Positions 9,813 through 64,000 of a DNA stretch of 64,000 bases are shown in pieces. The position numbers and the translations under genes were made by a program. The DNA comes from Folioceros fuciformis. Lineage: Eukaryota. The stretch spans positions 1-64,000 of the forward strand of contig JBNGIO010005379.1 of NCBI GenBank assembly GCA_049999805.1, in the 5' to 3' direction. Each line of letters starts with the position of its first letter. Positions within the stretch are counted from its first letter, which is position 1. The notes below the pieces were generated by a model. That model saw only the letters and a list, made by a program, of their open reading frames with translations, was not told the DNA's origin and ran no database searches.

Positions 9813-10174
9813 GAAATTAATCCATAGGAAGAAAATTAACCCCCACCAAGTACACCTGAAAGCAATAGTTGCAGCACTAAAAATATTATTACTGCTGCAA
9901 GTGGGCATCTCGACATGTACAAGGATGTGGGCAGCCGCTTAATTAAATATAATAACGCAAGTGTAGATCTTTTGTTATTAAATGTAATTATCGGCCACCT
10001 TAGGAGCATTACTGCAGACGCGGTTTCTTGAGCTGAAGGCGTCCCTACCTCCACGTGACACAGTAGGAATATACGTGCGCACGCGCTTTCGTGGAGTGAG
10101 CTCTACTCTATGGAATCAGGAAAGAAAAGCAGGGACGACGCAAAGTGAGAGCTACCTGTGCAGCTGAGAAGAAC

Positions 10175-24549: not shown

Positions 24550-27144
24550 TCAATGCCGATCCCCACACGAGCAACAGCCATCCACAAAATGGTGCACCCG
24601 ATGTGCATCTCTGACTATGATCTCCCGCTTTTCAATCCTTGACAATGTCTTGGTTTGGCCATGACAGTCATCACACATGCGGATGTTCTTCGTGACCCGT
24701 AGAGTTGTGCAATCTGGGGTATTCAGCAAACCGTAGGCCACTGCTAGTTTTTCTGCATGTCCACAGAAGGCATCTTCATCCTTTCCATTAGATAAAAACT
24801 GTAGGACTGTCTCCTTGGGGCCTCCGCTGGTTCTTCCTTCCTTCGACTGCACGTTCACACTCTTCAATTTGGATGTGATGTCGTCTCTTTCCTCCCCTAC
24901 TGTAAAGGCATGAACCTTGCTGTTCACCTCGATCCACGCCCTTGCAGGTTTCTTGCAAGCGCCAGCCAATTTCCTTGAGCTTTCTATGCTCACTGCTTCT
25001 CCCTTCCTACCAGCATTGGCATAGATGCTGGACAATAGAATGTAGGCAGCAGCATTTTGAGGATCCATTTTAATAATGGTGTCAAAACATCGCCGTCCAC
25101 GCTCCACATCATCATGCCTTTTGCATGCACTCAGCAAACATGTCCACCCCACCACATTGTCGTGAAACGGCATTGTTTGCAGCACCTTCTCAGCCTCTTC
25201 CAGCCAGCCCGATCGTCCAAAAACATCAACCATGCAGTTGTAGTGATACAGACTGGGGGTGATTCCATGGTCTTCCACCATTGTCTTGAAAAAGTGTTCA
25301 CCCTCTTTCACCAAGCCATCCCGACTGCATGCCGTGAGAAGACCCAGAAAGGTAGCATCATCAGGCTCAACACCATGTTGTTGCATTTCTTCAAAACAGC
25401 GAATCGCCATTTGCCCGTCGCTATGTTGGCCGTAGCCATTGAGTAGGGCATTCCATGTCACCACGTTTTTCGTGGGCATTCTGTCAAACACCTTACGAGC
25501 ATCCTCCAAGCTCCCACATTTAGCATACATGTCCACCAGGCCATTACCCACAACCACATTACCTTCAAGTCCCATCTCCTGAATGTCATAGTGCAGCTGT
25601 TTACCGTGACCTAGAGCTCCGATGCTGGCACAGGCTTTCAAAAGTGACACAAATGTGGTAGCAGTCACTGGAGTGTTGCCCTCCTGCTGCATGGCAGAGT
25701 AAAGAGCGAGAGCCTCTTGACCAAGCCCCTGCTGGGCGTATCCAGCAAGCATGGCATTCCACGCGACCACATCTCTACTCGAGAGGGCATCAAACATGCT
25801 TCGAGCATCCTCCAGGCTTCCACATTTTGCAAAGCCTGCCAGCATTGTAGTCCATGACACAACATTTCTGGCCTGCAGATTCTCAAATGCACTACGAGCA
25901 TCCTCTAGGCTCCCACACTTGGCATACATATCAACCAGGCTGCTACCGACAACCACATCAGCTTCCAGTCCCTGTTCTTGTAGCAGGGAGTGGAGCTCCT
26001 TGCCCTCACGCAGAGCTCCAACACTGGCACAGGCTTTCAGCAGACACACAAATGTAGAACGGTCAGCTGGTGTGATGCCTTCCAGTTGCATACCTGCGTA
26101 GAGTGAAAGGGCCTCTTCACCCAGACCATGCTGGGCATAACCAGCAATCATTGCATTCCAGGTGACCACATCCTTTGTGGGCAATCTGTCAAACACTCTG
26201 CGGGCATCCTCTAGACTCCCACACTTAGCATACATATCCACCAGGCTGTTACCGACAACCGCATCAGCTTCAAGCCCCCTTTCCTGAACCTGGCAATGAA
26301 GCTCCTTACCTAGATTCAGAGCTCCAACAGCGGCACACGCTTTCAGCAGGCATACGAATGTGACATTATCCGCTGGAGTGATGCCCTCAGCATGCATGGA
26401 TGAGAAAAGAGAAAGGGCCTCGCGACCACGTCTATACCTAGCATAGCCCGCAATCATGGCATTCCACGTTACCACATCTTTGGTTGGCAAGGTGTCAAAA
26501 ACTCTGCGAGCATCCTCTAAGCTCCCACACTTAGCATACATGTCTATCAGACAGTTGGCGACAAAAATGTTAGGCTCTTGTACACTGCCCAAAACGTCAG
26601 CATGGACCTGCTTGCCGGAAGGTAAATCTTCTGCGGTGGAACACGCTTTGAGGACTGCCACGAAAATGTGGTTGTCTGGCTTGACAGTGGACTTGGGCAT
26701 TTGCTGATATAACTTGACAGCCTGAGCAGGCTGCCCATTTTCCGCATGCGCCAAAATGATGGAAGCCCACGTGAAGGGGTCTTGGGCAGGCAAACTGGTA
26801 AACACCTGCCTCGCTTGTTGCAGCCTCCCATTGGCAGCATACATCCGTATGAAGTGGTTGGCCAGGAAGGAGTTCGAGTCCTGGCCACATTGTGAAGCGA
26901 GGGCATGGAGATGCGAGCCAGCACTCAAGTCCTTCTCCGCAATGCATCTCATGAGGAGGCCATAGAAGACTGATGTGGGAATGTGAGATCCCCCATGCAC
27001 CAGAAGATCCAACACCTGGATGGCATCACTCAGCGTCCCTGCACCCACGTTGCTCCAGTCCACCCTGCAAAGTTCCGGCCAAGTGTCAAGCAGGAGGCGA
27101 GGAAAGCATGAAAGAAGGAGGGAGCTACGGAGCAGACCTCCCAC
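24550..27144 (-). CDS. PLS-class PPR with DYW:KP domain ending DRH; 5' exon unresolved
   Basis: PLS triplets plus an extra S-type motif (RNVVSWTTMLAGFAKCGSLEDA); KKPARAWIEV...CGHAEKLAVAYGLLNTPD...KNIRMCDDCH...CSCGDRH*. Confidence 0.94.
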   Translation of the reverse strand: MGGLLRSSLLLSCFPRLLLDTWPELCRVDWSNVGAGTLSDAIQVLDLLVHGGSHIPTSVFYGLLMRCIAEKDLSAGSHLHALASQCGQDSNSFLANHFIRMYAANGRLQQARQVFTSLPAQDPFTWASIILAHAENGQPAQAVKLYQQMPKSTVKPDNHIFVAVLKACSTAEDLPSGKQVHADVLGSVQEPNIFVANCLIDMYAKCGSLEDARRVFDTLPTKDVVTWNAMIAGYARYRRGREALSLFSSMHAEGITPADNVTFVCLLKACAAVGALNLGKELHCQVQERGLEADAVVGNSLVDMYAKCGSLEDARRVFDRLPTKDVVTWNAMIAGYAQHGLGEEALSLYAGMQLEGITPADRSTFVCLLKACASVGALREGKELHSLLQEQGLEADVVVGSSLVDMYAKCGSLEDARSAFENLQARNVVSWTTMLAGFAKCGSLEDARSMFDALSSRDVVAWNAMLAGYAQQGLGQEALALYSAMQQEGNTPVTATTFVSLLKACASIGALGHGKQLHYDIQEMGLEGNVVVGNGLVDMYAKCGSLEDARKVFDRMPTKNVVTWNALLNGYGQHSDGQMAIRCFEEMQQHGVEPDDATFLGLLTACSRDGLVKEGEHFFKTMVEDHGITPSLYHYNCMVDVFGRSGWLEEAEKVLQTMPFHDNVVGWTCLLSACKRHDDVERGRRCFDTIIKMDPQNAAAYILLSSIYANAGRKGEAVSIESSRKLAGACKKPARAWIEVNSKVHAFTVGEERDDITSKLKSVNVQSKEGRTSGGPKETVLQFLSNGKDEDAFCGHAEKLAVAYGLLNTPDCTTLRVTKNIRMCDDCHGQTKTLSRIEKREIIVRDAHRVHHFVDGCCSCGDRH

Positions 27145-27784
27145 AGGGTTTGTGATGGCCCAGCGATAGTTGCCCCGAAGTGACTGAGGACGGATGACGA
27201 GATAAGTTCTTCCTCCAAAAGAGCGAGCCCGAGGGCCGCGGGACCAGAGACTTGTGAGGCAGCAACACGTACCTCGATGAAGCCGGCTCTGCTGCAGCAG
27301 ATCAGCTACACATGAGAATTGTCGAGTGGAGAGCAGATGGGTGTGGAGAAGGCAGAGGTAGGGGGCTCACCGGGACCGAGCTGATCTGTAGATGAGACAC
27401 CTGGTCCTGCCCCTGCCCCTGCCCCTGCCCCTTCCCTTAATGATGACAGGCGTCTCCACCAGTCCTCCGCACTGCGTTTGCTCGGGAACAGGCACCCTGC
27501 AGCCAAGTGGGTCCTGGTCTTCAACATGGGGACAGCCGCCTACGCTTGCTTCGCTGACGAAAACGGCGAGCGCGGTCCATCCCTGAACGGTGTGGGACTT
27601 GCCCTGCCTAGCAGAGCACTTGATGCTTTACGCCAATATACAGAACGGTTTTGTGCGCTTCCGTTCACCCATGTGTGGCATGGGGAGCTAGAAGTCCAGG
27701 CACCTTGCGGGGCGTGAAGAGAAGGGGTTGAACATGTAACCTCCTCTCCGAGGGGATGCTGGCAGGGCTTGTGAGCTTGAGGTC

Positions 27785-33015: not shown

Positions 33016-35919
33016 TCAATGCCGATCTCTGCACGAGCAAGAGCCATCCAGAAAACGGTGTACCCGATGAGCATCTCTGACGATAATCTCTCGCTGCTCC
33101 AGCCGTGACATGATCTTGGTACTACTGTGACAATCATCGCACATACGAAGATTCTTGGTGACCAGTAGAGAGGAGCCGTCGGGAGTGTTCAGCAGCCCAT
33201 ACGCCAAGGCCAGCTTTTCCGCATGGCCACACAATGCATCTTGCTTTTCCTGCTCGGACATCAACTTGAGCACCAACTCGGTTTGTGGCACATGCCCTCC
33301 TTCTTCCTTCAGCCTCGTATTCACACTCTTCAGCTTGAATGATAGGTCTGACCTCTCTTCCCCAACTGTGAACTCGTGTACCTTCCTCTGCACTTCAATG
33401 TATGCCTTTGCAGGCTTCTTCCAGGCACCTGCGGACTTTCTCAGTCGTTCTGTGTCATCCACATCCTTCCACCTACTGGCATTCGCATAAATGCTCCCCA
33501 ACAACACATAGTAGCTAGCGTTAGCTGGGTCTAAGGAAATGAGACGCTCAAAACATCTTTTCCCACGTTCCGCATCATTATGGTTCTTGCAGGCACTCAG
33601 CAATGATGTCCACCCCACCACATGCTCCGGCAATGGCAAGGTCTGCAGGAGATCTTCTGCCTCGTCAAGACGCCCTGACCGTGCAAGAAGATCCACCATA
33701 CAACCGTAGTGATTATCAGTTGGAACCATGCCATAATCCTCCACCATCAACTTGAACACCTGCTGGCCCTCATCTACCAGGCCTGCGTGGCTGCATGCCA
33801 CAAGAAGGCAGGTGAAGGTAGTCTCATCAGGCTTCACACCTTGCTGGTGCATCTCCTCAAAGCACTTGATGGCCGTTTGTCCGTCACCATGTTCAGCAAA
33901 GCCATTGAGCAAACCACTCCACGTTACCACATCCCTCACAGGCATTTTGTTGAAAACTTGCCGAGCCTCATCCATGCTCCCACACTTAGCATACATGTGG
34001 ACCAGACTGTTGCCAACACACACGTCATTCTCCAACCCTCTCTCCCGAGCCTCTACGTGCAGCTGTTTCCCCTGCTGTAAGGCTCCAATGGTGGAGCAAG
34101 ATTGAAGGAGACACACAATTGTGACATGATTCACCGATGTGACTCCCTGCTGCTGCATTTGTGCATACACAGAGAGGGCTTCTTGAGCGAACCCTTGCTG
34201 TGCGTATCCTGCAATCATGGAAGTCCATGTCACCACATCTTTTGTGGGCAATCGGTCAAACACCCTGCGAGCCTCCTCCAAGCTGCCACATTTTGCATAC
34301 ATGTCAACGAGACAGTTGCCAACTTGCACATTCACTTCCAGGCCCCGTTCACGAATCTGTGCATGAATCTCCTTCCCCTCAACCAGCAGACGCATGCTGG
34401 CACATGCTTGGATCAGGCACACAAACGTCACAGGACTGTCAGGTCTGACGCCTTCCAGTTGCATACGTGAGTGCAGCGCAAGGGCTTCTTGAAAATGTCC
34501 TTGCTGGGCATATCCTGACAACATGGCCGTCCAAGTAACCACGTCTCTTCTGGGCAATCTGTCAAACACTCTCCGTGCATGCTCTAAGCTGCCGCACTTA
34601 GCATACATGTTCACCAGGCTACAACCTACAGAACCATCAGCCTCCAGGCCTCTCTTACGAATCTGTGCATGAAGCTGCTCTCCCTGATGCAGGACTCTCA
34701 TGCTGGCACATGCTTTGAGAAGACACACAAAAGTAACGTTGTCAGCTGGAAACATACCTTCTTTCTCCATGGTTTCATACAAGGCCAGGGCTTCGCCACC
34801 AAGCCCTTGCTCAGCATATGCTGCAATCATGGTTGTCCAGGTCACGATAGTCTTGGTGGGCAAACTATCAAAAACGTTGCGAGCTTCTCCGACGCTTCCA
34901 CATTTTGCGTACATATACACAAGGCTGTTGCCAACAAAAGTATTGGCTTTGACAGCACTGGCCAAGACATCTGCATGGACATCCTTGCCGGACACCAGAT
35001 CCCCAGCAGCCGCACACGCTTTGAGCACGGCCACAAATACATGGTTGTCTGGTTTGACACTAGACTCACGCATCTGTTTATACAGTCTTATGCCTTCTGC
35101 CGGCTGCCCGTGTCGAGCATATGCCAAAATGATAGAAGACCACATGTAAGCGTTTGGTGAAGTGACTTTGGACAAGACCTGTAGTGCATCCTCCAATCGC
35201 TCATGAGAAGCATACATAGCTATGACATGGTTGGCTAGGAAGGCGTTTGTCTCGTACCCACTAGTGACTGCTAGTGCATGTACTCGTCTACCTAGAACGA
35301 GATTTTTTTGCACCGTACACCTCTTCAGGACTCGATAGAAGAGGGAAACGGAAATATTGCATCCTCGATTGACTAGAGCATCCAAGGCATCAACCGCTTG
35401 TATCAGATCTCCCTCGTCACAAATCTGGGTCAAGGCCTGACATGCTGCATCTTCTCGAACCTTGCCCTGGCTGCTAGGGTGAGTGTTTGCAGAGGTAGAC
35501 TCAGTGCATAGGGAGGCCGTAGGAGGCGCGGCTCGCCTCCTCCCAAAATCCCACCTGACCAGTTGCGAGTCCACCCACTCAGGCTTGTCACAGTTGTTTG
35601 GCCATAAGTCCTCCTTGTAACGCTTGTGCCTGGAATCCGGATACAGTGAGCTTTCATTTCGAGCCCTATTGTCCCACCACTGCGTGCGATCCAAGCACTG
35701 ATCTTGCCACAAGACCTGCTGCTCCAAACCTGCCGACCTGGCACCTGCTCGCTTGCCAGGTCGGCAGCAAGACCGACAACTAACATCCCTCATGGGCAAA
35801 CCATCTTTGGCAGAGACCACGTAATGCGCGTGACAGTGCGCAAAGCTTGGTAGCATCACCGAATTCCTTAAATCCGATGTTCCCAAGCCTAGCAACGGCG
35901 CCTGCAGCGGCACAGTCAT
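33016..35919 (-). CDS. Intronless PLS-class PPR with DYW:KP domain ending DRH, 967 aa
   Basis: ATG-initiated ORF with a long N-terminal extension and PLS triplets; WKKPAKAYIEV...GGHVPQ...CGHAEKLALAYGLLNTPDG...KNLRMCDDCH...CSCRDRH*. Confidence 0.95.
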   Translation of the reverse strand: MTVPLQAPLLGLGTSDLRNSVMLPSFAHCHAHYVVSAKDGLPMRDVSCRSCCRPGKRAGARSAGLEQQVLWQDQCLDRTQWWDNRARNESSLYPDSRHKRYKEDLWPNNCDKPEWVDSQLVRWDFGRRRAAPPTASLCTESTSANTHPSSQGKVREDAACQALTQICDEGDLIQAVDALDALVNRGCNISVSLFYRVLKRCTVQKNLVLGRRVHALAVTSGYETNAFLANHVIAMYASHERLEDALQVLSKVTSPNAYMWSSIILAYARHGQPAEGIRLYKQMRESSVKPDNHVFVAVLKACAAAGDLVSGKDVHADVLASAVKANTFVGNSLVYMYAKCGSVGEARNVFDSLPTKTIVTWTTMIAAYAEQGLGGEALALYETMEKEGMFPADNVTFVCLLKACASMRVLHQGEQLHAQIRKRGLEADGSVGCSLVNMYAKCGSLEHARRVFDRLPRRDVVTWTAMLSGYAQQGHFQEALALHSRMQLEGVRPDSPVTFVCLIQACASMRLLVEGKEIHAQIRERGLEVNVQVGNCLVDMYAKCGSLEEARRVFDRLPTKDVVTWTSMIAGYAQQGFAQEALSVYAQMQQQGVTSVNHVTIVCLLQSCSTIGALQQGKQLHVEARERGLENDVCVGNSLVHMYAKCGSMDEARQVFNKMPVRDVVTWSGLLNGFAEHGDGQTAIKCFEEMHQQGVKPDETTFTCLLVACSHAGLVDEGQQVFKLMVEDYGMVPTDNHYGCMVDLLARSGRLDEAEDLLQTLPLPEHVVGWTSLLSACKNHNDAERGKRCFERLISLDPANASYYVLLGSIYANASRWKDVDDTERLRKSAGAWKKPAKAYIEVQRKVHEFTVGEERSDLSFKLKSVNTRLKEEGGHVPQTELVLKLMSEQEKQDALCGHAEKLALAYGLLNTPDGSSLLVTKNLRMCDDCHSSTKIMSRLEQREIIVRDAHRVHRFLDGSCSCRDRH

Positions 35920-35933
35920 ATCTTCCGCTTAAT

Positions 35934-48419: not shown

Positions 48420-49747
48420 GGAGATTTTGTGGTGTCTGACAGAAGCAAACCCTTCAACTCTTACAAGCTTACAGCACCCTGTTTAATGTGTGTGTAATGT
48501 GGTGTGGTGTGAGTATTGTTAACTAATGAACCATGCAGGAGGGTGATGTTGAGCGGCACAGCATGACAACAAGCATCCACGCATATTCCCTAACCTAACG
48601 TGTACAACCAAGCAAGACACTCTACGTAAGTTGCACATTAGCAAAGTTCATAGTAACCTAGTCCTCGTCGGCAACCTCTAGCCTAGATCTTATTATGTGC
48701 CTCATCTCCTCTTGCAAAGCTCCCTAGTGCCCAACTCACTTGGCAAGTAGCCTAGCATGCAATTCCTCAACCTTGGCAACCTCTCATACAAAAGCTCCCT
48801 TTACAGAATATAACTTTGGTTGAAAAAAAAATGTGCTAGACCACTTGCTTCACTCCTCCACCCATGCATAATTGATAAGCTTAAGCTCAATGAGAACTTC
48901 ACCTCTAACCAAGATCTATCGATAACTAACTATCAAATACTCTCCCTACACCTTGTTCATAAGCTCAACTCGCATAATGCCTTTGGATGTTTGTTCCAAC
49001 TCTTCAACAATGTTAACCTAGTGCTCACTAGCTCTTCCTATGTCATCTCTCATTTATTAGCTCAAGGGTGGGCCTTGACCACCCGTGTATGGGAGGTTGC
49101 TAAGGTTGAAAAATTATGTACTAGTCTATTGGCTTCTTAGAGCACTCTTCACAAAATATGGCCTTTTACTAAAAATAAAATGTTTTTATTGTAAATATAA
49201 TTCAAATAATTTCTTTGTAAGCTTGTTTTCAATTCTTTTTCGAGCCATAAATGATGATGAGATACAAGCACATGGGATTAGCAATGGGTTAGTGGATTCA
49301 TAGTACTAAGGGTAGGATTTGGGAATTTGTATAATATCATGGCCTGATAGCAATGCTATGGTGCAGTTTACCCAGGGTTGGGGCATGGGCTTGCCTTGGG
49401 CTCAATCAAGTTTAAGTTACATTCTTTTATGCACAATTTAAATTTAATTCTTAATTGATATATGCTTTATTTATTCTGGTATTGATTAATTGATTTATAA
49501 ATCTTCACTTTTGTGGCTCATAAAGCTTTTCTTCGACAGATAGCTTAGTTTGGAACATGGACGAACAGGTGACTCTGGCTCCGTGCAGATTGCCTGATTG
49601 TGCTGGGCTCCCATCTGCCATCCGGTTCGAGAAGGAAAAGGTGCCCATTTCTCAGGGCTTGGATGATGCAGGCATGCTGCCTTGTCTAGGATCGGCTCTC
49701 CATGTGCAAAGCCAGAGACAGGCGGCCCCCGTGACCTCCATGGATTC

Positions 49748-52700: not shown

Positions 52701-53098
52701 TGAAGTTGGTGAGCAAAATGCCCGTCGTCGCCAACGCTGCTATCTGGCATACTCTATTGAATGCTTGTCGAAAGTGGAGGAACCTGGAGGTGGCGCGACA
52801 CGCTTTCGAAGAAGCAGTGAAGCTAGACGAAAAAGATGCGGCTGCATATGTGCTGATGTTCAATATGTACACCGGTGCCCAGATGTGGGAGCAGGCACAG
52901 ATGGTACAGTTGAGGAGGATGAAGGTCAGGGCATGGAAGCAGCCAGGTCAGAGCTGGTGGACCGACATGAACGGAGAGGTTCATAGTTTTTTGGTTGGGG
53001 ACGACAAGCTCAAACCAGAATCAAACACGTCTTGCGCTGAAAGAAGCCAGGATGTGGACCAGTCACGTGACCGGGAGGCATATCTGATGTTAGGATGA
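49748..53098 (+). CDS. Long PLS-class PPR with E domains and a truncated DYW:WW-type C-terminus (E+-like, no catalytic zinc motifs)
   Basis: First in-frame ATG at 49748; about 7 PLS triplets; ends WKQPGQSWWTDMNGEVHSFLVGDDK then an unrelated tail; no HxE or CxxC. Confidence 0.92.
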   Translation: MAVGNVVIRILGRAPAQVQPQSQAHVPCRNQRRPQLLAHKHAARYSSTWPSTPQPDEPGSGGRIRCAEYERGAAVTQLCDQGYITQAVEALGVLVQTRCCISKSLFSAVLKKCAFRKDLVLGRRVHAFAVRTGYQSDAVLGTSILRMYASHGRLQDAMDVFELVSEPDAFTWSAVISAHAKQGQDKLAVELYHRMRRSSVKPDGHVFVAVLQACARGHDLKTGQQVHAHLLATGTQPDCFVTTCLVNMYAKCGQLEDAHTLFDGLGQNQKHVVTWTALIAGYSQQGRGQEALRIYGAMQREGLTVPNSVTFVCLLQACSSVGAPALDKGRQLHAEIRDHGHQDDVFVANSLVNMYAKCGSLEDARRVFQGLRHKDVGTWNALIAGHAHHGKGQEALRLYDVMKHECSTTPDSMTFVCLLQACAAVGTPALEKGRQLHVQIREGGHEADMFLANNLVNMYAKCGSIEDAERVFHGLHQRDVVTWNAMIAGYSQQGMGWEALRVYTDMQEEASAPPNSVTFVCLLQACANVGSAGLEKGREIHAQIAESVHQADEFVANSLVNMYAKCGSLDDAQRVFDGLRRKDVVMWTALIAGYSQQDMGQKALHLYSAMQEEGTAVPNSLTFVSLLQACASVGTQALDKGKQIHMQIREQGHEADLFVANSLVNMYAKCGSLEDAHAVFDGLTQKDVVTWTALIAGYSQQNMSQEALRLYGAMQEDSMAVPNSMTFGYLLQACSNLGTPALDKGKQLHAEIRARGYQGDLFVANSLVNMYVKCGSLEDAHRVFDGMVEKDVVTWTALIAGYSQHGMGQEALRHYIAMQDEGITVPDPVTFVCLLQACANVAALHLGRQIHAQIEEQGLHHQAFIASSLINMYGKAGSMVNAQQVFDGLPHRETVAWSALIAGYASQGHSEIVFDLVQRMRDDGVQPVGVTFLSVLTVCSHAGQMAKGMEFFEAMSREYGVTRTVEHYTCMVDLLGRAGQVDEALKLVSKMPVVANAAIWHTLLNACRKWRNLEVARHAFEEAVKLDEKDAAAYVLMFNMYTGAQMWEQAQMVQLRRMKVRAWKQPGQSWWTDMNGEVHSFLVGDDKLKPESNTSCAERSQDVDQSRDREAYLMLG

Positions 53099-54349: not shown

Positions 54350-57300
54350 TCATGCGACAGAAGGCCTGAGCACCGGAGTGTCACCTAACACAGGTAACTC
54401 TTGCGAACTAGAAGGTTTGGTAACATTTTCTGGCTCAGCACCGTCATCTTCTTCTTCCTCTTCACTTTCTGTTTCGGCAAAGTAGTCGATGTTGAACTCG
54501 GGACCATCGCCTTCAGGCATTTCTGGTCCGCATTTGTAGTTCTCATGCCATATCTCAAGACCGGCGTTATCTTTCTCAGTTTTGGCGTCCAAGATCTCGA
54601 AGGCATCCAGTAGGAAAAGTCTCTTATCTACCTCTTTCCTTGTGTCCAAGTGCCGGGCTCTGTCAGCAAGTCGGAGTCCAGCATGCCTGGCCTCCCATGC
54701 TATTCTGTGTCGCCTCCGGTCCACATCCAGCAGTATTTCAGCATGATTTTGCCGAATTTGTTGTCTTCTAGCACGTAGTCTAGCCTCCTTTGCGGCTACC
54801 GTGTTGTCAGTGAGAACTCGCAACGCGGCTCTCCTTTTAGTGGCGTTCAGGTTATCACAGGCCTCACTGAGACTTGCACATACTTGCACTTCTCTTTCGC
54901 TCTCAAGAAAAATCTGTCTTCTTCTCATCCTTTCAGCGGCGGATTTGGCATCAAGGAACGAGTTGAAGGCATGGTTGCATGCGTGGAGCTCCCATTCTGT
55001 GGTCTTGTCTACATATCCAATTTTGGCCTGCAAGAACTGTCTTTTAGCTTCCCTTTCAGCAAGAGCTGCCCTCCTCTTCTGCCTTTGCCTCAATCTGTCG
55101 TTGCACAAGCGAGTTTCTAAATACGGCTCCGCGGGGTCATGCCTGTCCATCAGTTGTCTCTCCTTTTGCCTGGCCAACTGTCGCTTTCTGCAAAGCGTTG
55201 CTTCCTTTATCCTTTCAATGGATCTTTGTAACTCCTCTTCTTGCAAGGCTTTGCTTTCTTCTGCTCTCCCGTCGTCACCAACTTGCGCCTTCGCTCCGTC
55301 ATCTTTTTTCTGCTCATCCGGCTTGTCAGATTGGATGAGCAGCCCTTGATCTTGAGGAGCAGGAGCAAGAGTAGGAGTGGAAGATCCATTTGCGTACACC
55401 TGCTCTTGGGGTGGACCCTGCAAAGCAGACTCCTCCTGCCCCTCGGGACTAGTAAGCGTGGTTGGCTGTACATCCATTTGGCTGTCAGGTCGCGCCATGT
55501 CTTTTGGTTCCGCTGGGTTCGTCGAATCTATTTCTGCTTGACCTTTTGCTTTGCAGGATTGTAATCTCGTCTTCATGCGTTTCAAGCCTTTGCTGATGTA
55601 TTCACAGTTTCTAGGACAACAGTGTGATGTTATGGCTGTCATTTTCCTTTTAATCCTGCCCTCCACAGGGCTTGAAGCTGATGTAGGGTCAGGCCCAGGA
55701 CTGCTGGTGATGGTTGAAGCGTTTTGTACTGTGGGGGTTTTCTCTGTAGATGTGGTCCTACGAGTGTCCATGGGAGCTTGCGCGTTGGCTATAATCTTGT
55801 CATTCTCGCTCTTGAATCTAAAAGCCTCCAACTCAGGTTCATTTCCTGCTTGTGGTATCTCGTTGAATGATGTACTTTCCCCTTGCTCCTGGGTGCCATC
55901 TGCGAGAGACGGTGGTCCACTGTTTTCAGTAAAATCACCTTTGGAGAATCCAATTCCCTCTTGCTCCTGGCTCCCAATGACGGACGAACGTCCACTCTTG
56001 TTCTTGGAGGTTAGATCATCCAAGGCCACTAGAACAAAGCGTGCACGTGAAGTGATTGTCTCCTTGGAACCGTCCGCTCCGACGTCTTCAGTTTTGGTCA
56101 CGGATGCTCTAGCAATCATAATTTCGTTGTCTTGAAGGGCAAAGCTGCTCTTCTGCATTGGGGCATTCTTCTCTTCATTCTGCTCTTGATTTTGCACTGG
56201 GGCGACCTGCTCTTGATTCTGCACTGGGGCACTCTGCTCTCCTTTCTGCGCCGGGGCACCCTGCCCTTCATCTTCTTCCGCACCCTTAGCTCGCGCACCC
56301 TCCAAATGACCTTTCAGGCTAATAGGCAGGCAACAGCTGGATAGTTTGGGTACATGAAGTGACCGACGGGGGCGCTTTGGCTCTTCTTCTAGGCCTTGCA
56401 CCGAAGAGTCCCTTAGGTCATCCCCATGGCTGGAGAATGTCCCAAATGCTGACATGCCTGCCCCTGGGGCAACTTCGTGGGGACCTGCTCCCGGGTCTGC
56501 TTCTTGGGTCCCTGATGTCACAAGTGGACCGTGAGCCTGACCTTTACGGATATTTGCAGAGAGCGTCCCTTGTGCTGTTGTGGCTTTGCTATGTTTGCTG
56601 TCAGGTAGGTTAGACTCGATATGGTTGTCATGCATAGACGTGTCTTCCGTTCTGCCGAGTGCTTTTCTCTTAAACGGGTTACAACATGCTCTTCTATCAT
56701 CCTTTTGAGTGTGAGGCACATCCGCTCCTACACTTGCAGCCGGAGTGTCTGGCGCGTTCGACACAGCAGCTGTCTCAACACCGCTTTGGGTTGGTGGTCC
56801 AGTGGATGACAAACCAGGAAGTGGATCAGGCTGTGCGCCTCCTTCCTTACCATCCTCAGCCTGTTTCGTACCCCGGGGTGCCTTTCTTGTGAAGGGGTTG
56901 AAGTATGCTTCTCCATCGTCTTCCTGAGTTGCAGACATATGTGCTCCTGGACTTGCAGCCTGTGTGTCCAATGCCTTTGACACAGAAGCTTTCTCAAAGC
57001 TGCCCTGGTTTGTCGGCCCAATCGATGACCGACCATGAAGTGGATCAGGTTGTGTACCTCCTGCCGGATCCTGAAAAACGTCACCCACTTTCGTACTCTT
57101 AGATACTTTTCTTGTGAAAGGATTGCAGGATGCTCCTCTCCCGCTGTTATCTTTCTGAGTTCCAGACACATCTACTTCTGGACTCACAGGCTGCATGTCC
57201 AACGAGTTTGACACAACAATTGTCTCGACATTGGCTTCAGTTTCTGGTGTAGAAGAGGGCAAAGTATGAAAGGGATCAAGCTGTGCATCTCTTTCTTCAC

Positions 57301-60300
57301 CACCTTCAATCTCTTTCGTACTCCCAGGTCTTTTTCTTGTGAATGGGTTGCACAATACCCCTCCATCATCTTCCTGAGGTCTGGGCACAATTGCTCCTGG
57401 ACTTGAAGCCTGTGTGTCCAATGCCTTTGACGCAGAAGTTGTCTCAACTCTACTTTGGTTTATTGGCCCAATCGATGACAAGCCATGAAGTGGATCAGGT
57501 TTTGCACCTCGATCCGAATCCTGACCGACTTCACCCGCAGTCGTACTCTCAGATGCTCTTCTTGTGAAAGGGTTGCAGGATGCTGCTCTATCGATGTTAT
57601 CTTTCTGAGTTCCAGACACATCTACTTCTTGACTTGCAGCCTGTATGTTCAACGCGTTTGGCACAACACCTGTCGCAATATTGCCTTGAGTTTCTGGTGT
57701 AGAAGATGGCGAAGTATGAAAGGGATCTGGCTGTGCATCTCTTTCTTCGCCGCCTTTCATCTCTTTCGTACTTCCGGGTGGTTTTCTTGTAAAGGGGTTG
57801 CACCATGCTTTTCCATCATCCCTCTGAGTTCCAAGCACACGTGCTCCTGGACTTGCAGCTTCTGTGTCCAACGCCTTTGACGGTTCACGTGTCTCAGTAC
57901 TGACTAGGTTTGGTCGTCCAGTGGATGAAAAACCAGAAAATGGATGAGGTTGGATGTCTCGTTCTTGACTACCTTCAGCCTCGTTTGTACTCCTCTTTGC
58001 TTTTCTCGTGAAGGGGTTGCACCATACCCACTTATCATCCTCGTGAGTTCCAATGATATGTGCTCCTCGACTTTCAGCCGGTGTGTCCAGTGTGGTTGAC
58101 ACATCGGCGGATTCAGCTGTCTGAGCACTGCCTTGGTTTGGTCGTCCAATCGATGGCAAACTAGGAAGTGGATTAGGTGGTATGTCTCCTTCCTGACTAC
58201 TGATTGTCTCTTGTGTACTCATAGGTGCTTTTCTCGTAAATGGGTTGCACCATGCTCTTTCATCATCCTTATGAATTCCAGACACATCTTCTTCTGGACT
58301 TGCAGCCGGTGTGTCGAACGCGTTTGACAAAGCTTCTGTCTCAACACCGCCTTGATTTGGTGGTCCAGTAGATGACGTACCCGGAAGGAGATTAGGTTTT
58401 GATTCTTCCTCCTGACCACCTTCGGTCTGTTTCATACTCTTGGGTGTCTTTCTCGTGAAGGGGTTGCACCTTGTTACTCTATCATCTTTTTGTGTTTCGA
58501 TCACATCTGTTTCTGGACTTTCAGCCGGTTTGTCCAATGCGTTTGCGAGAATTGTTGTCTCGACACCGCCTTGGTTTGGTCCTCCATCGGATGGCAAATT
58601 AGGAAGTGGATCTCTTTGTATGTTTCCTTCTTGACCACCTTCAGTTGCAAAGGCCGACGATGCAAACATTGGCATCTGATCGGACTGCAAGTTGCTATCG
58701 TGATCTACATCTGATGGTTGCTGCAGGTTGGTGGATGGTTGAGACAGGAGAGGTGGATTAGCCTGTTGGCTATGTGTCACGCCCTGGTTTTTTGGCCACC
58801 CGCTGTTATGCAGATCGCTACCACTCACCTCAGAAGCTGGCAGGTTTGACTTGTATGCACTTGATTCACGTGTGCTGTCTGTAGGTGCCCCTGCTGTTCT
58901 TGCCAAAATGGTTCTCTCCTCTTTCGTTGTCTCAAAATTTTCACTGTCACTGGATTGATGCGTACGTATGTCAGAAACAGTTTGGTTGTCATGCACACAA
59001 ATGTCCTTTATGGTTGTCCTGTGGTCTCTTCTTTTGAAGGGAAAGCAACAGACTTGTTTGTTGACCTCCTGGTGTGGTCGTTCTCCAATCAAAACAGCAA
59101 ATGCCTGTGTGTTGACAGGGGATGCATCCACAGCAGCACCAGTTGCCTTCATTATTGCAAAGTCCGGAATGAGTGGTCCTGTGGATGCTAGAGTGGTAGC
59201 CTCATCTTGTGGTGCTGCATCTCCCGTATCACCTTTCTCAGTCAGAGCGCTATCTTCTCCTCTTGTTGAGGGGTAGCAGCGTGATGCTGTTGCGCTATCT
59301 CCTCTAGGATCCTGATGTTCAAGGATCGGAACACATGCAGCTGAAGATAGTGTTCCTTTGGTGAACACAGGTGGGCTTGTGCCAAGAACCTTGTCGACTT
59401 TGTCAATCTCCTCATTCTTGTCTCCTTGTATGCTACTAGCTGCCATGACGCTTTTATCATGTGTTGGTTCCTCTTCTGTTGCGTCAGTTTCATTTGGCTG
59501 TACGCCAGCATGTAAATTGCTTGATAAGCCAGCAGAGTGAAGGGCACTTGACGCTCTCGAGGTTGAGGCTGCTGGTGATTCTGTTGTCTGAATGATGTCT
59601 CCAGTTGGGTCTACCCTAGTCAATTCTTCTAGAGGTGAAGAGAGGTGATGGATCTGTATTCCATCTGGATCTGCGGAAATTGGGTTGCCATCAGATTTGG
59701 TTTGCATATCTCCAGGGAGCAAAGTCGGAGGTACCTTTTTGTCCACGATAGCTTCCGAGAAAATGGTCGTCGATTTCCTCATCTTAGTAGAATCACTCAC
59801 GTCTTGATCTTCCAGTGGGTAAACAGAGGTTTTGTGGTCTTCGAGAAGAATACTGTGTGATTCAAAGAGTACACCCTGTGGAAGTTTGACATCGGTATTT
59901 GTTGTTGGCTGTGTTGTGGGTGCGATTTGCGATGATCTTCCTCTTCCGTTGAGTTCAATTATGCTTTCTATCATAGTTCCTGAGTTGTCCTCCACATCCA
60001 TGAATATAAAACCTTGCAAGTTGTCATTCTGGTATGTATCTTGCACTGCTGTCGTGGGTCTTCCTTCATCTGTTATTTGAGAGGCATTATCCATTTTTTC
60101 CTTATCAGTACATGGGTCACGTGTACCGTAGCATTCACTCATCTTCGCTTGGCCTTCATTGGAACCTGAAGGTGGTTCGTCCTCAGGAATAATTGGATCT
60201 AAAATGCCCTTAGTTGTTGTTACTTCATTTGATTTCTGTTGCTCCAATTGATTCTGTATGGGGAGCTCAGGTGTGTATAGGACCTGAGCTTGAGGGGGCT

Positions 60301-63300
60301 GGACAGACATGGCAAAGGCTGAATCAAGGGTGCCCAAAGCTCCATCATCAACTGTCTGATTCTCTAGTATCAGTGTGTTAGAAGGGCAAGCTCCATTAGT
60401 ATCTGCTTCATTGATGCTCGGTTTGTCTAGCATTTGCTCAATCTCTGGCACTTGGTTACAAGTGGTTGGGATGTCAGTGGAAGTCCTACTGATCGTGCCC
60501 CCTTGAATGCTTTTAGTAAGCTTCTCCACAAAGCAGAAGGGACAGGGTCCTGGAACTTGACATAAACTTCTGTCTCCCTTCTTGTCTTCGCTTCGTTTAG
60601 CAATGCCATCATTACTCTCTTTGGACGCCTTTCTACAACCATCTCCCTGCTCAGAAGGGGCAACCTCGTTCTGTCCTTTCTCTACGCATGCAAACTCTTG
60701 ACTCTTGATTTCAGTAGCTGTCGTGTTCTCTGTGCTCATATGCGGACTCCCGTCTCCCTGTTCTTGTGAGATGTCGGAGGTCAACACCTGGCATGTGGTT
60801 TGTTCTCCCTGATGGTGGTCTTTGCTTAGGTCGGCTGATTCAATATTGCCAGCTCTTGAAGGCGAGCCTTCGCCAAGGAGATTGCCTCCATGGACCTCTC
60901 TCTCAATCTTAGCAACTTCATCATGCCTCCGCTGTGCCGAGTGCATAGCACAATTTTGACTTTTGGGTTCATCACGTGCCCCATGTGTTGTGCTCGTAGA
61001 ACCCTCGCCAATTCGTGTGTGACTTGCTTTTGAAACTTGTATACGCGACACACGAGCCTCAGTTTGGTCTTCTTGTGTGTTTAGTAATATGCCTTGTTCA
61101 CCTATGTTTTCTGCTGAATGTAAACTCGTACCGATCTCTGCGGGCACCTCTTTTTTTCCGATAGGTTCCAAGTCCTCACTCTTTTCTGGAGCCAGGTTGA
61201 TTGAATGTAGTCTAGTGGGTTCATCAGAACGCAGGTGTGAGCTTCCTTGTACAGGACGACTCGCTGGAATTCCGGTTTGCTTTTTCGGAATGTTTTTAGT
61301 CACTGTATCATTCGCTGGTGAAGCAAACATGGACAAGGTTTTGGTACTATTTCCATGTGGTGAAGGTGTTGATGGCTCTGATGGTGGGACTATGGGTTTT
61401 CCAAGGACTTCTGTGTCCTGTGTAGACTTCTCCTTCTCGTAAGAAGGGGGCGTCGCCATTGCCACTAAAACGAAGTGAGATGTCAGTACGCTGTGAACCA
61501 TATCTGTGGACGTAATTGCTTCTGCTATGATTTTGTCAGCTCCTTCGACCTCGGTAGGCAATTTTGGGTCTCCTGAATCAAATGCCGTGGTTGACGTCGA
61601 AGCTCTGGCAATCATATGTGCCTCATCGTCTTCAATTGCGGCTTCGTTTCTGTACTCGACGAGCGTCTCCTGTCCGTGTTGATTGCGTCCAACTTGATTA
61701 GAGATTGTATCGTGACATGATGAATCTGATTTTTCCTTGTCCGTAGCCAAAGATAGTCTTGAGTGGCGGTCTGCTCCAATTGTTTGAGGGTCCATGTGCT
61801 GAGCACGCTCTATTTCGGACGATTGCTCTCTTTGGTGAGTACTGGGTCTGTCTGGGATACCATGTCTTCCAAAATTCGCTTCCTTGGCTCCATATACCTG
61901 TGGTATGATGTCTATGGACGGCTGATGATCATGATCGCTCTCTCTTTTTTGCTTGGTAGTTATTAGCTCAGCATCGTTGCCAGGCGGTGTGGTCTCTTTG
62001 GTGCCTTGATGATCGCTCCCCCTTACTTCTTGCGTATTTAGCTCGTCCGTGTGGCCAGAATGCTGAGGAGTGCCGGAGTCGGCCTGGGTGATACTTTGTC
62101 TCCCAGTCTTGTAGAAGGAGCTACTCACTTTAAGCAGACCACCCTCAGTGATAGATAGGCCAGAGATAGAGAAACGTGGCTGCATTTCCTTACTATCAAG
62201 CTCAAGAATAGGCATGGGTACTGGACTGGTGCCTGGTTTGCTTTCCCCGGCTTGCTGAGCTCCGAAGGATATCTGGACAATCTCGTCCATGTTCACGTTG
62301 TCACTCTTCTTCTGGTCACTCTTCACGTGGTCTCTGCCTGGCGGTTTTTGTAACATGTGATGGAGAGGAGAAACCTCTGAAACTGCTCTCTCACCTTCAG
62401 AGGCACGTTGGAGAATGGGTTTCTCTTTATCATTGACCCCAGAAAATGCGGTTTCTAATGACTTCGCACGTAGTGCGGGCCTCATCTGCGTGCTAGAACG
62501 CATGATCCTGCTTCCTTGAGAAGAGCCGGCATCCTGCCTTGGTACCGTGCTGCTTTGTTCAACCTCATGCAGTCTGGGCACAATTGCTGCATGCTGCTTC
62601 TCATGTTCTTCACCTGTTGTTGTTTTGTGACTTGCTTGTTCCAAAGTTTTGCACCCTGAGTATGCAATTCGCACACCACTGTGGAAGGCCATGGCAACAT
62701 GATGTCCGCCAGATTCCATCTTCTCAACTAATATTGCGTCGGCCCTTGAGGCAATGCCAGGTTCAGCACCCTGATGCGTCGCAGTGTGACAAGTTAGTTG
62801 CCCAGTTATGCAAGACTCGCTCGTCTTTCTTAATCTTGTTGACGAGTAGTGATTTCCCGAGCTGGCTCTGCTACGCAGGTTACTTGTGTTCATGGTAGAA
62901 GTAATGTGCTCTCTATCGAGATGGTTCATGTCTTGTGTGCTTGCATTATGGTATGCGGACTCGAGTAACTGTGAATCCAGGAGTGTGGATCTTTCTTTTT
63001 TGGGAAATTTAGAGAGAAGACCATCGCTGGGACTTGTCTCGCCATAAGATCCGTCCCGGATGATCCCTCTCGACAAAGTGGGCTCAGTGGATGATATCGA
63101 GCGCTTGCCACCCATGGTCTCTCGCTGGGCTGTCGTGTTCCGTGAAACGGACAATGAAGGTTCCTGGCCTCCTCGCAAGTTAACACTGCGGCCTGCTTGA
63201 CTTGTGCCCTCGGGACCATCTACCTCAGACTTTGAAGACCTCTTTGTACCATTCGATGAAAGGCTAGAGCTGTCGGGATTCAAACTTGGCAACATGGTCC

Positions 63301-64000
63301 CGGATGTTGAAGGTATAGAGGTTCTTCTTCGTCCTTGATGTCCCTGTGTAGGTGAATGATCTGTGATGTATTGACGTGGTTCATCTTGTGTTTCCTCAAC
63401 TAATACGTCCTCAAGCTCCATTTCCTTCATGTTCTTTGGTTTTGGCACGACAATGAGGTATGTTTTTTTTTTGTCGGCATCGTTGAATAGTTGACCTTGT
63501 GAAGATCCGGACCAGGGTGGATCAGTAATTATTTCGTGTACCTTACTCTTCGTTTTTGACGGTGTGGGGTGTGTAACTCGTGATTCTTTGTCTCCTATTG
63601 TTTGACGATGTTTTTCGTCCCGTGGCATCCCGCTCTCCTCTTTCTTCTGGTGCCGTGTATCTTGGGGTGAGATGATGCTGCTCCCAGTTGTAGTAATGGT
63701 TGTCGCGAACAATGTCGTGGTTGAGGCGCTATGATGTGATGCTTCCTCCAAATATTGTGCTCCACTAGTTCCTGTGTGATTGTGCACTGCCAAATTCTCT
63801 GTGCCTATCTGGGATGCTCTCGTCAGACTAACATAGCCTTCAGCGGCATGGACGTCTTTCTTGATGACCTCAGCTACTTCACTAGTGCGTGAAGTGTGAG
63901 CTTCCTCCTGAAGCTTGGAGAACATATTTTGGATCATGTTGATCTCGTAGTGGTTGTGCACTGGTGAGCTGGCGGTTCGTGGTGATGTCACTGTGCTTGT
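54350..64000 (-). CDS. Giant (>3200 aa) intrinsically disordered protein with CNPFTRK repeats and a C-terminal coiled coil; 5' end lies beyond the window
   Basis: Stop-free frame from the window edge to TGA at 54350; S/T/E/D/Q/P/G-rich; repeats at ~56620-58640; R/E/A-rich helical C-terminus. Confidence 0.85.
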   Translation of the reverse strand, partial: TSTVTSPRTASSPVHNHYEINMIQNMFSKLQEEAHTSRTSEVAEVIKKDVHAAEGYVSLTRASQIGTENLAVHNHTGTSGAQYLEEASHHSASTTTLFATTITTTGSSIISPQDTRHQKKEESGMPRDEKHRQTIGDKESRVTHPTPSKTKSKVHEIITDPPWSGSSQGQLFNDADKKKTYLIVVPKPKNMKEMELEDVLVEETQDEPRQYITDHSPTQGHQGRRRTSIPSTSGTMLPSLNPDSSSLSSNGTKRSSKSEVDGPEGTSQAGRSVNLRGGQEPSLSVSRNTTAQRETMGGKRSISSTEPTLSRGIIRDGSYGETSPSDGLLSKFPKKERSTLLDSQLLESAYHNASTQDMNHLDREHITSTMNTSNLRSRASSGNHYSSTRLRKTSESCITGQLTCHTATHQGAEPGIASRADAILVEKMESGGHHVAMAFHSGVRIAYSGCKTLEQASHKTTTGEEHEKQHAAIVPRLHEVEQSSTVPRQDAGSSQGSRIMRSSTQMRPALRAKSLETAFSGVNDKEKPILQRASEGERAVSEVSPLHHMLQKPPGRDHVKSDQKKSDNVNMDEIVQISFGAQQAGESKPGTSPVPMPILELDSKEMQPRFSISGLSITEGGLLKVSSSFYKTGRQSITQADSGTPQHSGHTDELNTQEVRGSDHQGTKETTPPGNDAELITTKQKRESDHDHQPSIDIIPQVYGAKEANFGRHGIPDRPSTHQREQSSEIERAQHMDPQTIGADRHSRLSLATDKEKSDSSCHDTISNQVGRNQHGQETLVEYRNEAAIEDDEAHMIARASTSTTAFDSGDPKLPTEVEGADKIIAEAITSTDMVHSVLTSHFVLVAMATPPSYEKEKSTQDTEVLGKPIVPPSEPSTPSPHGNSTKTLSMFASPANDTVTKNIPKKQTGIPASRPVQGSSHLRSDEPTRLHSINLAPEKSEDLEPIGKKEVPAEIGTSLHSAENIGEQGILLNTQEDQTEARVSRIQVSKASHTRIGEGSTSTTHGARDEPKSQNCAMHSAQRRHDEVAKIEREVHGGNLLGEGSPSRAGNIESADLSKDHHQGEQTTCQVLTSDISQEQGDGSPHMSTENTTATEIKSQEFACVEKGQNEVAPSEQGDGCRKASKESNDGIAKRSEDKKGDRSLCQVPGPCPFCFVEKLTKSIQGGTISRTSTDIPTTCNQVPEIEQMLDKPSINEADTNGACPSNTLILENQTVDDGALGTLDSAFAMSVQPPQAQVLYTPELPIQNQLEQQKSNEVTTTKGILDPIIPEDEPPSGSNEGQAKMSECYGTRDPCTDKEKMDNASQITDEGRPTTAVQDTYQNDNLQGFIFMDVEDNSGTMIESIIELNGRGRSSQIAPTTQPTTNTDVKLPQGVLFESHSILLEDHKTSVYPLEDQDVSDSTKMRKSTTIFSEAIVDKKVPPTLLPGDMQTKSDGNPISADPDGIQIHHLSSPLEELTRVDPTGDIIQTTESPAASTSRASSALHSAGLSSNLHAGVQPNETDATEEEPTHDKSVMAASSIQGDKNEEIDKVDKVLGTSPPVFTKGTLSSAACVPILEHQDPRGDSATASRCYPSTRGEDSALTEKGDTGDAAPQDEATTLASTGPLIPDFAIMKATGAAVDASPVNTQAFAVLIGERPHQEVNKQVCCFPFKRRDHRTTIKDICVHDNQTVSDIRTHQSSDSENFETTKEERTILARTAGAPTDSTRESSAYKSNLPASEVSGSDLHNSGWPKNQGVTHSQQANPPLLSQPSTNLQQPSDVDHDSNLQSDQMPMFASSAFATEGGQEGNIQRDPLPNLPSDGGPNQGGVETTILANALDKPAESPETDVIETQKDDRVTRCNPFTRKTPKSMKQTEGGQEEESKPNLLPGTSSTGPPNQGGVETEALSNAFDTPAASPEEDVSGIHKDDERAWCNPFTRKAPMSTQETISSQEGDIPPNPLPSLPSIGRPNQGSAQTAESADVSTTLDTPAESRGAHIIGTHEDDKWVWCNPFTRKAKRSTNEAEGSQERDIQPHPFSGFSSTGRPNLVSTETREPSKALDTEAASPGARVLGTQRDDGKAWCNPFTRKPPGSTKEMKGGEERDAQPDPFHTSPSSTPETQGNIATGVVPNALNIQAASQEVDVSGTQKDNIDRAASCNPFTRRASESTTAGEVGQDSDRGAKPDPLHGLSSIGPINQSRVETTSASKALDTQASSPGAIVPRPQEDDGGVLCNPFTRKRPGSTKEIEGGEERDAQLDPFHTLPSSTPETEANVETIVVSNSLDMQPVSPEVDVSGTQKDNSGRGASCNPFTRKVSKSTKVGDVFQDPAGGTQPDPLHGRSSIGPTNQGSFEKASVSKALDTQAASPGAHMSATQEDDGEAYFNPFTRKAPRGTKQAEDGKEGGAQPDPLPGLSSTGPPTQSGVETAAVSNAPDTPAASVGADVPHTQKDDRRACCNPFKRKALGRTEDTSMHDNHIESNLPDSKHSKATTAQGTLSANIRKGQAHGPLVTSGTQEADPGAGPHEVAPGAGMSAFGTFSSHGDDLRDSSVQGLEEEPKRPRRSLHVPKLSSCCLPISLKGHLEGARAKGAEEDEGQGAPAQKGEQSAPVQNQEQVAPVQNQEQNEEKNAPMQKSSFALQDNEIMIARASVTKTEDVGADGSKETITSRARFVLVALDDLTSKNKSGRSSVIGSQEQEGIGFSKGDFTENSGPPSLADGTQEQGESTSFNEIPQAGNEPELEAFRFKSENDKIIANAQAPMDTRRTTSTEKTPTVQNASTITSSPGPDPTSASSPVEGRIKRKMTAITSHCCPRNCEYISKGLKRMKTRLQSCKAKGQAEIDSTNPAEPKDMARPDSQMDVQPTTLTSPEGQEESALQGPPQEQVYANGSSTPTLAPAPQDQGLLIQSDKPDEQKKDDGAKAQVGDDGRAEESKALQEEELQRSIERIKEATLCRKRQLARQKERQLMDRHDPAEPYLETRLCNDRLRQRQKRRAALAEREAKRQFLQAKIGYVDKTTEWELHACNHAFNSFLDAKSAAERMRRRQIFLESEREVQVCASLSEACDNLNATKRRAALRVLTDNTVAAKEARLRARRQQIRQNHAEILLDVDRRRHRIAWEARHAGLRLADRARHLDTRKEVDKRLFLLDAFEILDAKTEKDNAGLEIWHENYKCGPEMPEGDGPEFNIDYFAETESEEEEEDDGAEPENVTKPSSSQELPVLGDTPVLRPSVA
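56620..58640 (-). repeat. Coding tandem repeat, nine units of 219-228 bp (73-76 aa)
   Basis: NPF codons at about 58460, 58243, 58015, 57796, 57571, 57346, 57121, 56896 and 56677; the reading frame is preserved throughout. Confidence 0.92.

Follow-up and report, generated by a model that had tools for sequence, protein, structure and literature searches.

Nine regularly spaced C-NPF-x-R-K cores under purifying selection in a giant, largely disordered predicted protein of the hornwort Folioceros fuciformis

The window analysed here is the first 64,000 of the 67,517 bases of contig C5379 (JBNGIO010005379.1) in the 87-Mb, 7,240-contig assembly of Folioceros fuciformis. A giant open reading frame (ORF) on its minus strand encodes nine tandem units, each with a seven-residue core, CNPFTRK or a close variant. 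The core is a protein-level signal under strong purifying selection, the spacer sequence evolves neutrally, and the frame has been kept open. The protein is best explained as a lineage-restricted, disordered scaffold of about 350 kDa whose nine C-NPF-x-R-K cores act as short linear motifs. We give a probability of about 0.4 to its being a nine-valent NPF ligand for the two AtEH/Pan1-type EH-domain proteins of this genome, possibly held on a membrane by S-acylation of its Cys residues.

The giant frame and its nine-unit array

The frame, the array and the cores were located as follows in the window:

54350..64000, minus strand: giant single open frame, 3,216 codons, stop-free from the window end to 54350
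56657..58660, minus strand: array of nine tandem units of 73-76 amino acids (219-228 nt) each, from protein and DNA profile searches
58448..58468, minus strand: core 1, (R)CNPFTRK
58229..58249, minus strand: core 2, (W)CNPFTRK
58001..58021, minus strand: core 3, (W)CNPFTRK
57782..57802, minus strand: core 4, (W)CNPFTRK
57557..57577, minus strand: core 5, (S)CNPFTRR
57332..57352, minus strand: core 6, (L)CNPFTRK
57107..57127, minus strand: core 7, (S)CNPFTRK
56882..56902, minus strand: core 8, (Y)FNPFTRK, the sole unit without Cys, NPF retained
56663..56683, minus strand: core 9, (C)CNPFKRK

The frame runs on to contig position 64147 and has 3,265 codons from stop to stop, a length with a chance probability of log10 about -72. 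The first in-frame ATG lies at contig position 64078, just past the window, and gives a predicted protein of 3,242 amino acids. The protein is rich in S, T, E, A, G, P and D, its in-window part has a net charge of -124, and very few of its residues are aromatic (F 2.0%, W 0.3%, Y 0.8%). FoldIndex was negative in 77% of the 51-residue windows of the whole protein and in 89% of those inside the array. No transmembrane segment was found in the giant protein, since its most hydrophobic 19-mer scores 1.16. Contigs from two DNA runs and one run merely guessed to be RNA span the frame with no joint; run X1, whose RNA nature is such a guess, contributed four jointless pieces over contig positions 55201-64496. 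Beyond 64496 X1 lacks the cover that two DNA runs provide, a difference within one study that is not counted as evidence. These contigs back the sequence of the frame and give no sign of an intron, and they are not a demonstration of expression. The sequence also suggests a possible 5' intron (GT at about 64377, AG at about 64112), but its joint was not present in the run contigs, which drop rare forms.

A 64-codon, ATG-started frame at contig positions 64148-64354 (minus strand) lies directly upstream of the giant ORF and in frame with it, separated by one TAA. It holds a further NPF (HANPFHP) and could be an upstream ORF, an N-terminal extension that has since been lost, or an exon whose splice junction escaped detection. 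At window positions 60270-60281, two runs of different studies depart from the assembly over about 12 bases, with one base out, one in and the frame kept, which is a local assembly error or an allele. A Cys/Phe cluster, CQVPGPCPFCF (window positions about 60560-60530, minus strand; residues 1147-1157), lies in a Cys-richer stretch of the N-terminal half and may be another acylation or metal site.

Profile searches recovered exactly nine full units at both the protein and the DNA level, plus a weak match at the upstream motif CCFPFKRR. The cores lie between 56663 and 58468 on the minus strand, with spacings of 73, 76, 73, 75, 75, 75, 75 and 73 amino acids along the array, and their order and letters agree with an earlier note made on this DNA. 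Every NPF tripeptide of the in-window protein (9/9) sits in the array, against 0.17 expected from composition. The units are 62-86% identical in DNA, so the array is not a product of recent homogenisation, and it is not a product of chance. The closest pairs, 5/7 (86%) and 6/8 (79%), are consistent with a 450-bp period and record a later two-unit duplication. AlphaFold2, run on the nine-unit alignment, predicted a unit without secondary structure (mean predicted local distance difference test score, pLDDT, 57). By a scaling law, a coil of 73-76 residues would span about 6 nm, or 27 nm when stretched.

Cys precedes NPF in 8/9 cores and its single replacement is the hydrophobic Phe, whereas N, P and F are each invariant in 9/9 units, with synonymous changes, and the Arg at +2 after Phe is invariant as well. 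Upstream of the core, the earlier note described an acidic KDD/EDD/KDN patch. These triplets were found (KDD three times, EDD three times, KDN twice) together with one RDD, and the first Asp alone is invariant. The acidity itself is only modest, because the 13 residues ahead of the core are net negative in just 5/9 units. The stretch of 11 residues that starts at the Cys position carries a net positive charge in 9/9 units.

Selection on the core and the spacers

Over the 36 unit pairs, the seven core codons had proportions of non-synonymous (pN) and synonymous (pS) differences of 0.04 and 0.62 and a dN/dS of 0.031, whereas the 66 spacer columns had pN 0.33, pS 0.33 and dN/dS 1.02. The best seven-column window not overlapping the core had a pN of 0.198. 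Because the pairs share units and the core was picked by eye, non-independence and choice were addressed by a neutral simulation and by a test on distinct variants. The simulation followed the units' tree and was scored by the best seven-codon window anywhere. The observed seven-codon identity of 0.905 was reached in 0/1,800 neutral runs (mean 0.62, maximum 0.84), and the simulated mean identity of 0.45 +/- 0.025 agreed with the 0.43 of the spacer. Counted as distinct codon variants, the core contained 8 synonymous and 3 non-synonymous changes and the spacer 50 and 159, respectively (Fisher p=0.0013). The core is thus a selected protein-level signal. The earlier note saw spacers diverge around a near-invariant core and gave, as a finding that would refute its reading, a core no better conserved than the spacer; the core proved far better conserved.

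The probability of the observed conservation under neutrality, from 4,000 simulations, was 0.014 for F, 0.024 for N, 0.033 for R, 0.047 for P, 0.080 for C, 0.12 for K and 0.18 for T. These values and the variant counts mark N-P-F-x-R, preceded by Cys and followed by Lys, as the functional unit, and the spacer sequence is free. Neutrality also predicts about 15 stop codons in the array, and stop-free runs were obtained in 0/4,000 simulations.

Searches for relatives of the protein and the motif

By sequence, the giant protein is a member of no family tested. Neither the whole protein nor its array or C-terminus alone matched a Pfam family above cut-off. Word-indexed protein searches found no relative of the C-terminus among proteins of 462-2000 amino acids and none of the array among proteins of 30-468 amino acids, array relatives longer than 468 amino acids lying outside that search; a word-indexed search with two-sequence alignment against proteins of 150-478 amino acids found no relative either. 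The PDB sequences gave a single match that was not credible (E 0.076), and Foldseek returned 0 rows. The best ESM Atlas scores, 0.76 and 0.80, are leads only. In viral and metagenome contigs, 0/54, 0/187 and 0/64 pattern matches were confirmed. The view of the earlier note that this is a giant, largely disordered protein of no recognised family was thus borne out by FoldIndex, AlphaFold2 and the family searches.

A genome-wide scan with a loose CNPF pattern was uninformative, since it matched 385 times and its control 257 times. The pattern C-x-P-F-[T/K/N]-R/S-[K/R/S] gave 24 matches, nine in the giant gene and the remaining 15 all in frames of at most 90 codons, where short exons are still possible. 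A two-unit protein query matched the giant gene alone (six matches). CNPFTRK, NPFTRK and WCNPF had no match in the literature, and no article on a protein of this kind came up, with subscription papers, hornwort annotation files and supplements outside the scope.

Outlying motifs and the C-terminal helix

Four further features of the giant frame, and a paralogous frame on contig C4038, were located:

59027..59050, minus strand: CCFPFKRR, a CC-x-PF-basic motif without Asn, 193 amino acids upstream of unit 1 (nhmmer E 0.09 to the unit)
56312..56335, minus strand: CCLPISLK, a second CC-x-P-hydrophobic motif without Asn, downstream of the array
55604..55621, minus strand: CCPRNC, a fourth di-cysteine, followed by a basic stretch
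54536..55276, minus strand: C-terminal E/R/A-rich domain, one predicted helix of about 250 amino acids
L004 3897-6275, plus strand: paralogue frame on contig C4038, 792 codons

The upstream CCFPFKRR is present as the earlier note had claimed; the CC-x-P-hydrophobic motif downstream of the array and the C-terminal long-helix domain with its paralogue go beyond that note. Three CC pairs occur outside the array, against 0.40 expected (P=0.006). CC-x-P-hydrophobic occurs there twice, a pattern chosen post hoc, against a shuffle mean of 0.004, and two occurrences were reached in 0/20,000 shuffles.

The C-terminal domain lies in the final 300 or so amino acids and was modelled as helices at residues 6-50 and 54-252 (pLDDT 80; predicted template modelling score 0.27). 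It has a non-heptad period of about 30 residues that is clearest in the paralogue (autocorrelation peaks at 60, 31 and 29). VIA-align matched the helix to unrelated long helices only, at non-specific Z scores of 7.4-9.0 (top match Z 9.0, root mean square deviation 12.2, 257 aligned). The domain is 31% identical to the C4038 paralogue (E 2.9e-10; reciprocal 1.2e-14), in which BLAST of the whole giant protein found no array. With the C-terminus, and not the array, as query, phmmer against 1.84 billion representatives gave one match, P0002. This 57-residue fragment from one Logan contig is the sole outside match to the C-terminus (E 6e-8), with 32/57 residues identical to the end of the domain. 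P0002 is devoid of P, A, T, H and Q, residues that number 10 in its window counterpart; 8/25 differences are reachable by C-to-T change alone and 17/25 are not. We infer that P0002 is a bisulfite-converted copy from a diverged relative, so the C-terminal domain is probably not confined to this genome.

The first Met of the C4038 paralogue opens MGARVTVC, which we take to be a possible N-myristoylation and Cys context; if so, it would fit a family habit of lipid anchoring. A 704-codon frame (L004 6310-8424, plus strand) begins 35 bp past the paralogue on the same contig, opens MAWKSWLCTSR and ends in W/E/R-rich repeats (FEASLCADRER-like). Neither the paralogue nor this neighbour gave a Pfam match above cut-off. 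The neighbour has a faint likeness to the C-terminal helix (BLAST E 0.056) and is possibly a third, diverged member of the helix family.

Candidate partners of the nine cores

NPF is the main ligand of EH domains: its Asn-Pro turn enters a Trp-lined pocket, weakly as a single copy and with avidity in multiples (PMC8927860), and a non-binding NPF gained EPS15 binding when tripled (PMC12808100). A conserved Trp mediates NPF binding by the EH1.1 domain of Arabidopsis AtEH1 (PMC8144573), and AtEH1 is a condensate scaffold for endocytosis, nucleated on anionic lipids (bioRxiv 2022.03.17.484738). The genome studied here contains two AtEH/Pan1-like genes with tandem EH domains, on contigs C6303 and C4930 (three PF12763 matches; EHD-type EH proteins were not searched separately). 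A Trp is invariant in the three aligned EH sequences, and from its position it is probably equivalent to W49 of AtEH1. It is for these reasons, namely the avidity known for NPF and EH domains, the EH proteins with their Trp, and the NPF binding and condensates of AtEH1, that a nine-valent EH ligand is given the probability stated above. Unit 8, which drops Cys yet keeps NPF, belongs with this reading.

Each NPF would dock weakly, by its Asn-Pro turn, in the Trp-lined pocket of one EH domain. A set of nine, joined by flexible linkers of about 75 residues, would have avidity for the tandem EH domains of the two AtEH/Pan1 (TPLATE-complex) proteins, and such binding may cross-link or nucleate endocytic assemblies. 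More tentatively, the Cys before NPF, the outer di-cysteines and the R/K tail may, through S-acylation and charge, keep the chain bound to an anionic membrane, the place where the AtEH/Pan1 EH proteins would work. The long C-terminal helix may serve in self-association or in attachment to a filament.

Several points weigh against an EH ligand. Arabidopsis SCAMP5 needs two NPFs with a short acidic gap, and the loss of either abolished measurable binding (PMC8144573). The SCAMP of this genome likewise has NPF-DEDEV-NPF (8-residue spacing), whereas the NPFs of the array lie 73-76 residues apart and have a basic stretch after them. Asn is missing from the outlying CCFPF and CCLPI, and the invariant Arg at +2 after Phe is not explained by EH binding alone. 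Other endocytic motifs are sparse in the giant protein (two DPF, one clathrin-box-like LFLLD inside the helix and two YxxPhi), and FxDxF was not found in it; nor were LC8 TQT, FFAT and WxxF motifs. NPF is also read by non-EH receptors, including POLE2, SEC23/24, AURKA, SSBP2/LDB1 and SHD1 (PMC12808100). The earlier note's step from NPF to EH domains finds its counterpart in the EH proteins with a pocket Trp, and it is weaker than that note implied because of these other readers.

The core may instead be a repeated lipid anchor and not a protein ligand, a reading that we hold to be doubtful, though a serious contender. Each (C)C-x-P-F-x-R-K would be S-acylated, with the acylated Cys, the Phe and the upstream Trp, Tyr or Leu inserted in an anionic bilayer and the Asn-Pro merely setting a turn; the 350-kDa chain would be stapled along one membrane, or between two, at intervals of about 75 residues. 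The excess of CC pairs and of the post hoc CC-x-P-hydrophobic pattern outside the array, the near-constant Cys with its hydrophobic replacement and the positive charge from the Cys position onward all favour it, as does the S-acylation of the clustered Cys of RIN4 in plants (PMC12236689). A Cys beside hydrophobic and basic residues, in a protein with no transmembrane segment, is a feature of S-acylated peripheral scaffolds, although it supplies context only. Against this, Cys is under less constraint than N, P, F and R and is absent in unit 8. Plant S-acylation has no clear sequence consensus (PMC12236689), and acylation therefore does not call for an invariant Asn or Arg.

It is unlikely, if well worth entertaining, that the cores address some other periodic or multimeric receptor. 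Candidates are NPF readers outside the EH class (SEC23/24, Aurora kinase, POLE2/DPB2) and cytoskeletal lattices, for example microtubules of the sperm flagellar apparatus, with the helix of about 250 amino acids lying along the polymer. NPF has several unrelated receptors that depend on its flanks (PMC12808100), and the invariant Arg and basic tail would suit an acidic surface. The single long helix with its non-heptad period, a likely SPEF2/CPC1 flagellar gene in the genome (two sub-threshold PF22946 matches, contig C3075) and a weak SPEF2_D5 lead in the ESM Atlas (0.76) point the same way. However, one in three shuffled sequences exceeds that Atlas score, and the lead did not recur with the paralogue. 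PF22946 (SPEF2_D5) had no match at E<=1 on the giant protein, and the genome-wide search for this family matched the different locus on C3075 only.

Homotypic stickers, by which the protein would condense or cross-link by itself through aromatic, cation-pi or disulfide contacts, are improbable. The layout is that of stickers and spacers, each core brings Phe or Trp, Arg or Lys and Cys, and the array is the more disordered part of the chain; but the very low aromatic density speaks against it, and the letter-exact N-P-F-x-R suggests a shaped pocket over compositional stickiness. A Rubisco-condensing pyrenoid linker of the EPYC1/CsLinker type is very improbable. Pyrenoids occur in hornworts, and the disordered linkers of algae carry 4-6 stickers at intervals of about 50 residues (PMC13655443), a plan of repeated stickers on disordered spacers that is present in the array. 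Yet the N-terminus from the putative first-ATG start, read by eye, is acidic and unlike a plastid transit peptide, and Anthoceros agrestis condenses Rubisco via RbcS-STAR without a separate linker (PMC13655443). A non-functional or pseudogenised tandem expansion with cores alike by accident can be set aside as extremely improbable, for although the searches found no array homologue and the single TAA that cuts off the upstream 64-codon stretch could be an early lesion, the frame is open far beyond chance, the array is free of the stops expected under drift and synonymous change dominates the core.

The nine-valent EH ligand could also be combined with acylation, in a fuller scheme that we consider speculative and on balance unlikely. 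One seven-residue element, present nine times at a fixed pitch of about 75 residues, would serve as S-acylated membrane staple and EH-type NPF ligand at once. Reversible acylation would switch this nine-site rail onto the membrane. There it would seed TPLATE/AtEH condensates or hold two membranes together, in a structure specific to hornworts such as the sperm, the sporophyte meristem or the cyanobacterial cavity, and the helix with the period of about 30 residues would represent a new small family.

Significance

One gene here isolates a short linear motif, since nine copies combine a spacer dN/dS of about 1 with a core value of 0.03, and the residues that matter (N, P, F and R, then C and K) can therefore be read off a single gene. 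In the literature covered, the SCAMP double NPF is the sole characterised NPF ligand of plant EH domains (PMC8144573). If an EH ligand is the correct reading, a nine-valent ligand with other flanks would widen the plant EH code and would be a ready reagent on valency and spacing in TPLATE/AtEH condensation. With a receptor of another kind, the motif would be bait for an unknown plant NPF reader. The apparently narrow distribution of the protein limits its significance.

Neighbouring loci

Genes lie densely in the 64-kb window, among them many frames for PLS-type pentatricopeptide repeat (PPR) proteins:

799-3558, 18737-19927, 24550-27366, 33016-35928 and 49667-53098: PLS-type PPR frames, at least five

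The PPR frames at 24550..27366 and 33016..35928 end in DRH and one PPR frame ends in DLQ; DRH is a hornwort subgroup of DYW:KP proteins linked to U-to-C editing (PMC9478123). At 10100-11293 (plus strand), an intronless 397-codon frame without a Pfam match lies among intron-containing plant genes. In a search of bacterial genomes only, 91/130 candidate stretches matched it, many from Myxococcota/Deltaproteobacteria and others from Planctomycetota, Chloroflexota and Solirubrobacterales. The 80 loci kept were 38-57% identical, mostly over most of its length, and the frame is a candidate for horizontal transfer. At 42564-45122 (minus strand) lies an 852-codon low-complexity frame with no Pfam match, a coiled-coil-like end and long overlapping antisense frames.

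Comparison with known systems

By analogy, the giant protein may be comparable in action to the multi-NPF accessory proteins of endocytosis or to acylated disordered scaffolds. GAP-43, MARCKS-like and AKAP12-like disordered scaffolds may be likenesses of it. With SPEF2/CPC1 D5 and other long-helix axonemal or coiled-coil proteins it shares a long, E/R-rich single C-terminal helix, but there was no sequence match to SPEF2/CPC1 and the structural matches were non-specific. The pyrenoid linkers EPYC1, CsLinker and PYCO1 have conserved short stickers on regularly sized disordered spacers as well (PMC13655443), whereas here the spacers are longer, no transit peptide is evident and the protein is far larger, and hornworts use RbcS-STAR (PMC13655443). 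RIN4, S-acylated at a Cys cluster (PMC12236689), is likewise an acidic disordered chain with short Cys/aromatic/basic islands; in contrast to such Cys-cluster proteins, the giant protein has up to a dozen islands, these are internal, and no sequence similarity was detected.

The system of Arabidopsis SCAMP5 with its double NPF and EH1.1 of AtEH1 has acidic residues somewhat upstream of NPF in common with the array (PMC8144573), and both the receptor family and a double-NPF SCAMP are encoded in this genome. A SCAMP is an integral membrane protein with two NPFs 8 residues apart, whereas the giant protein has single NPFs 75 residues apart with basic tails. Synaptojanin 1, SCAMP1, epsin, AGFG1 and NUMB, which are multi-NPF EH ligands, share several NPFs in a disordered region and avidity with it (PMC12808100, PMC8927860). 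In contrast to these ligands, the giant protein showed neither an ENTH, ArfGAP or phosphatase domain in Pfam nor a transmembrane domain by hydrophobicity, and its NPFs occur in nine exact tandem units at 73-76 residues, with Cys at -1 and Arg at +2, in a chain of about 350 kDa.

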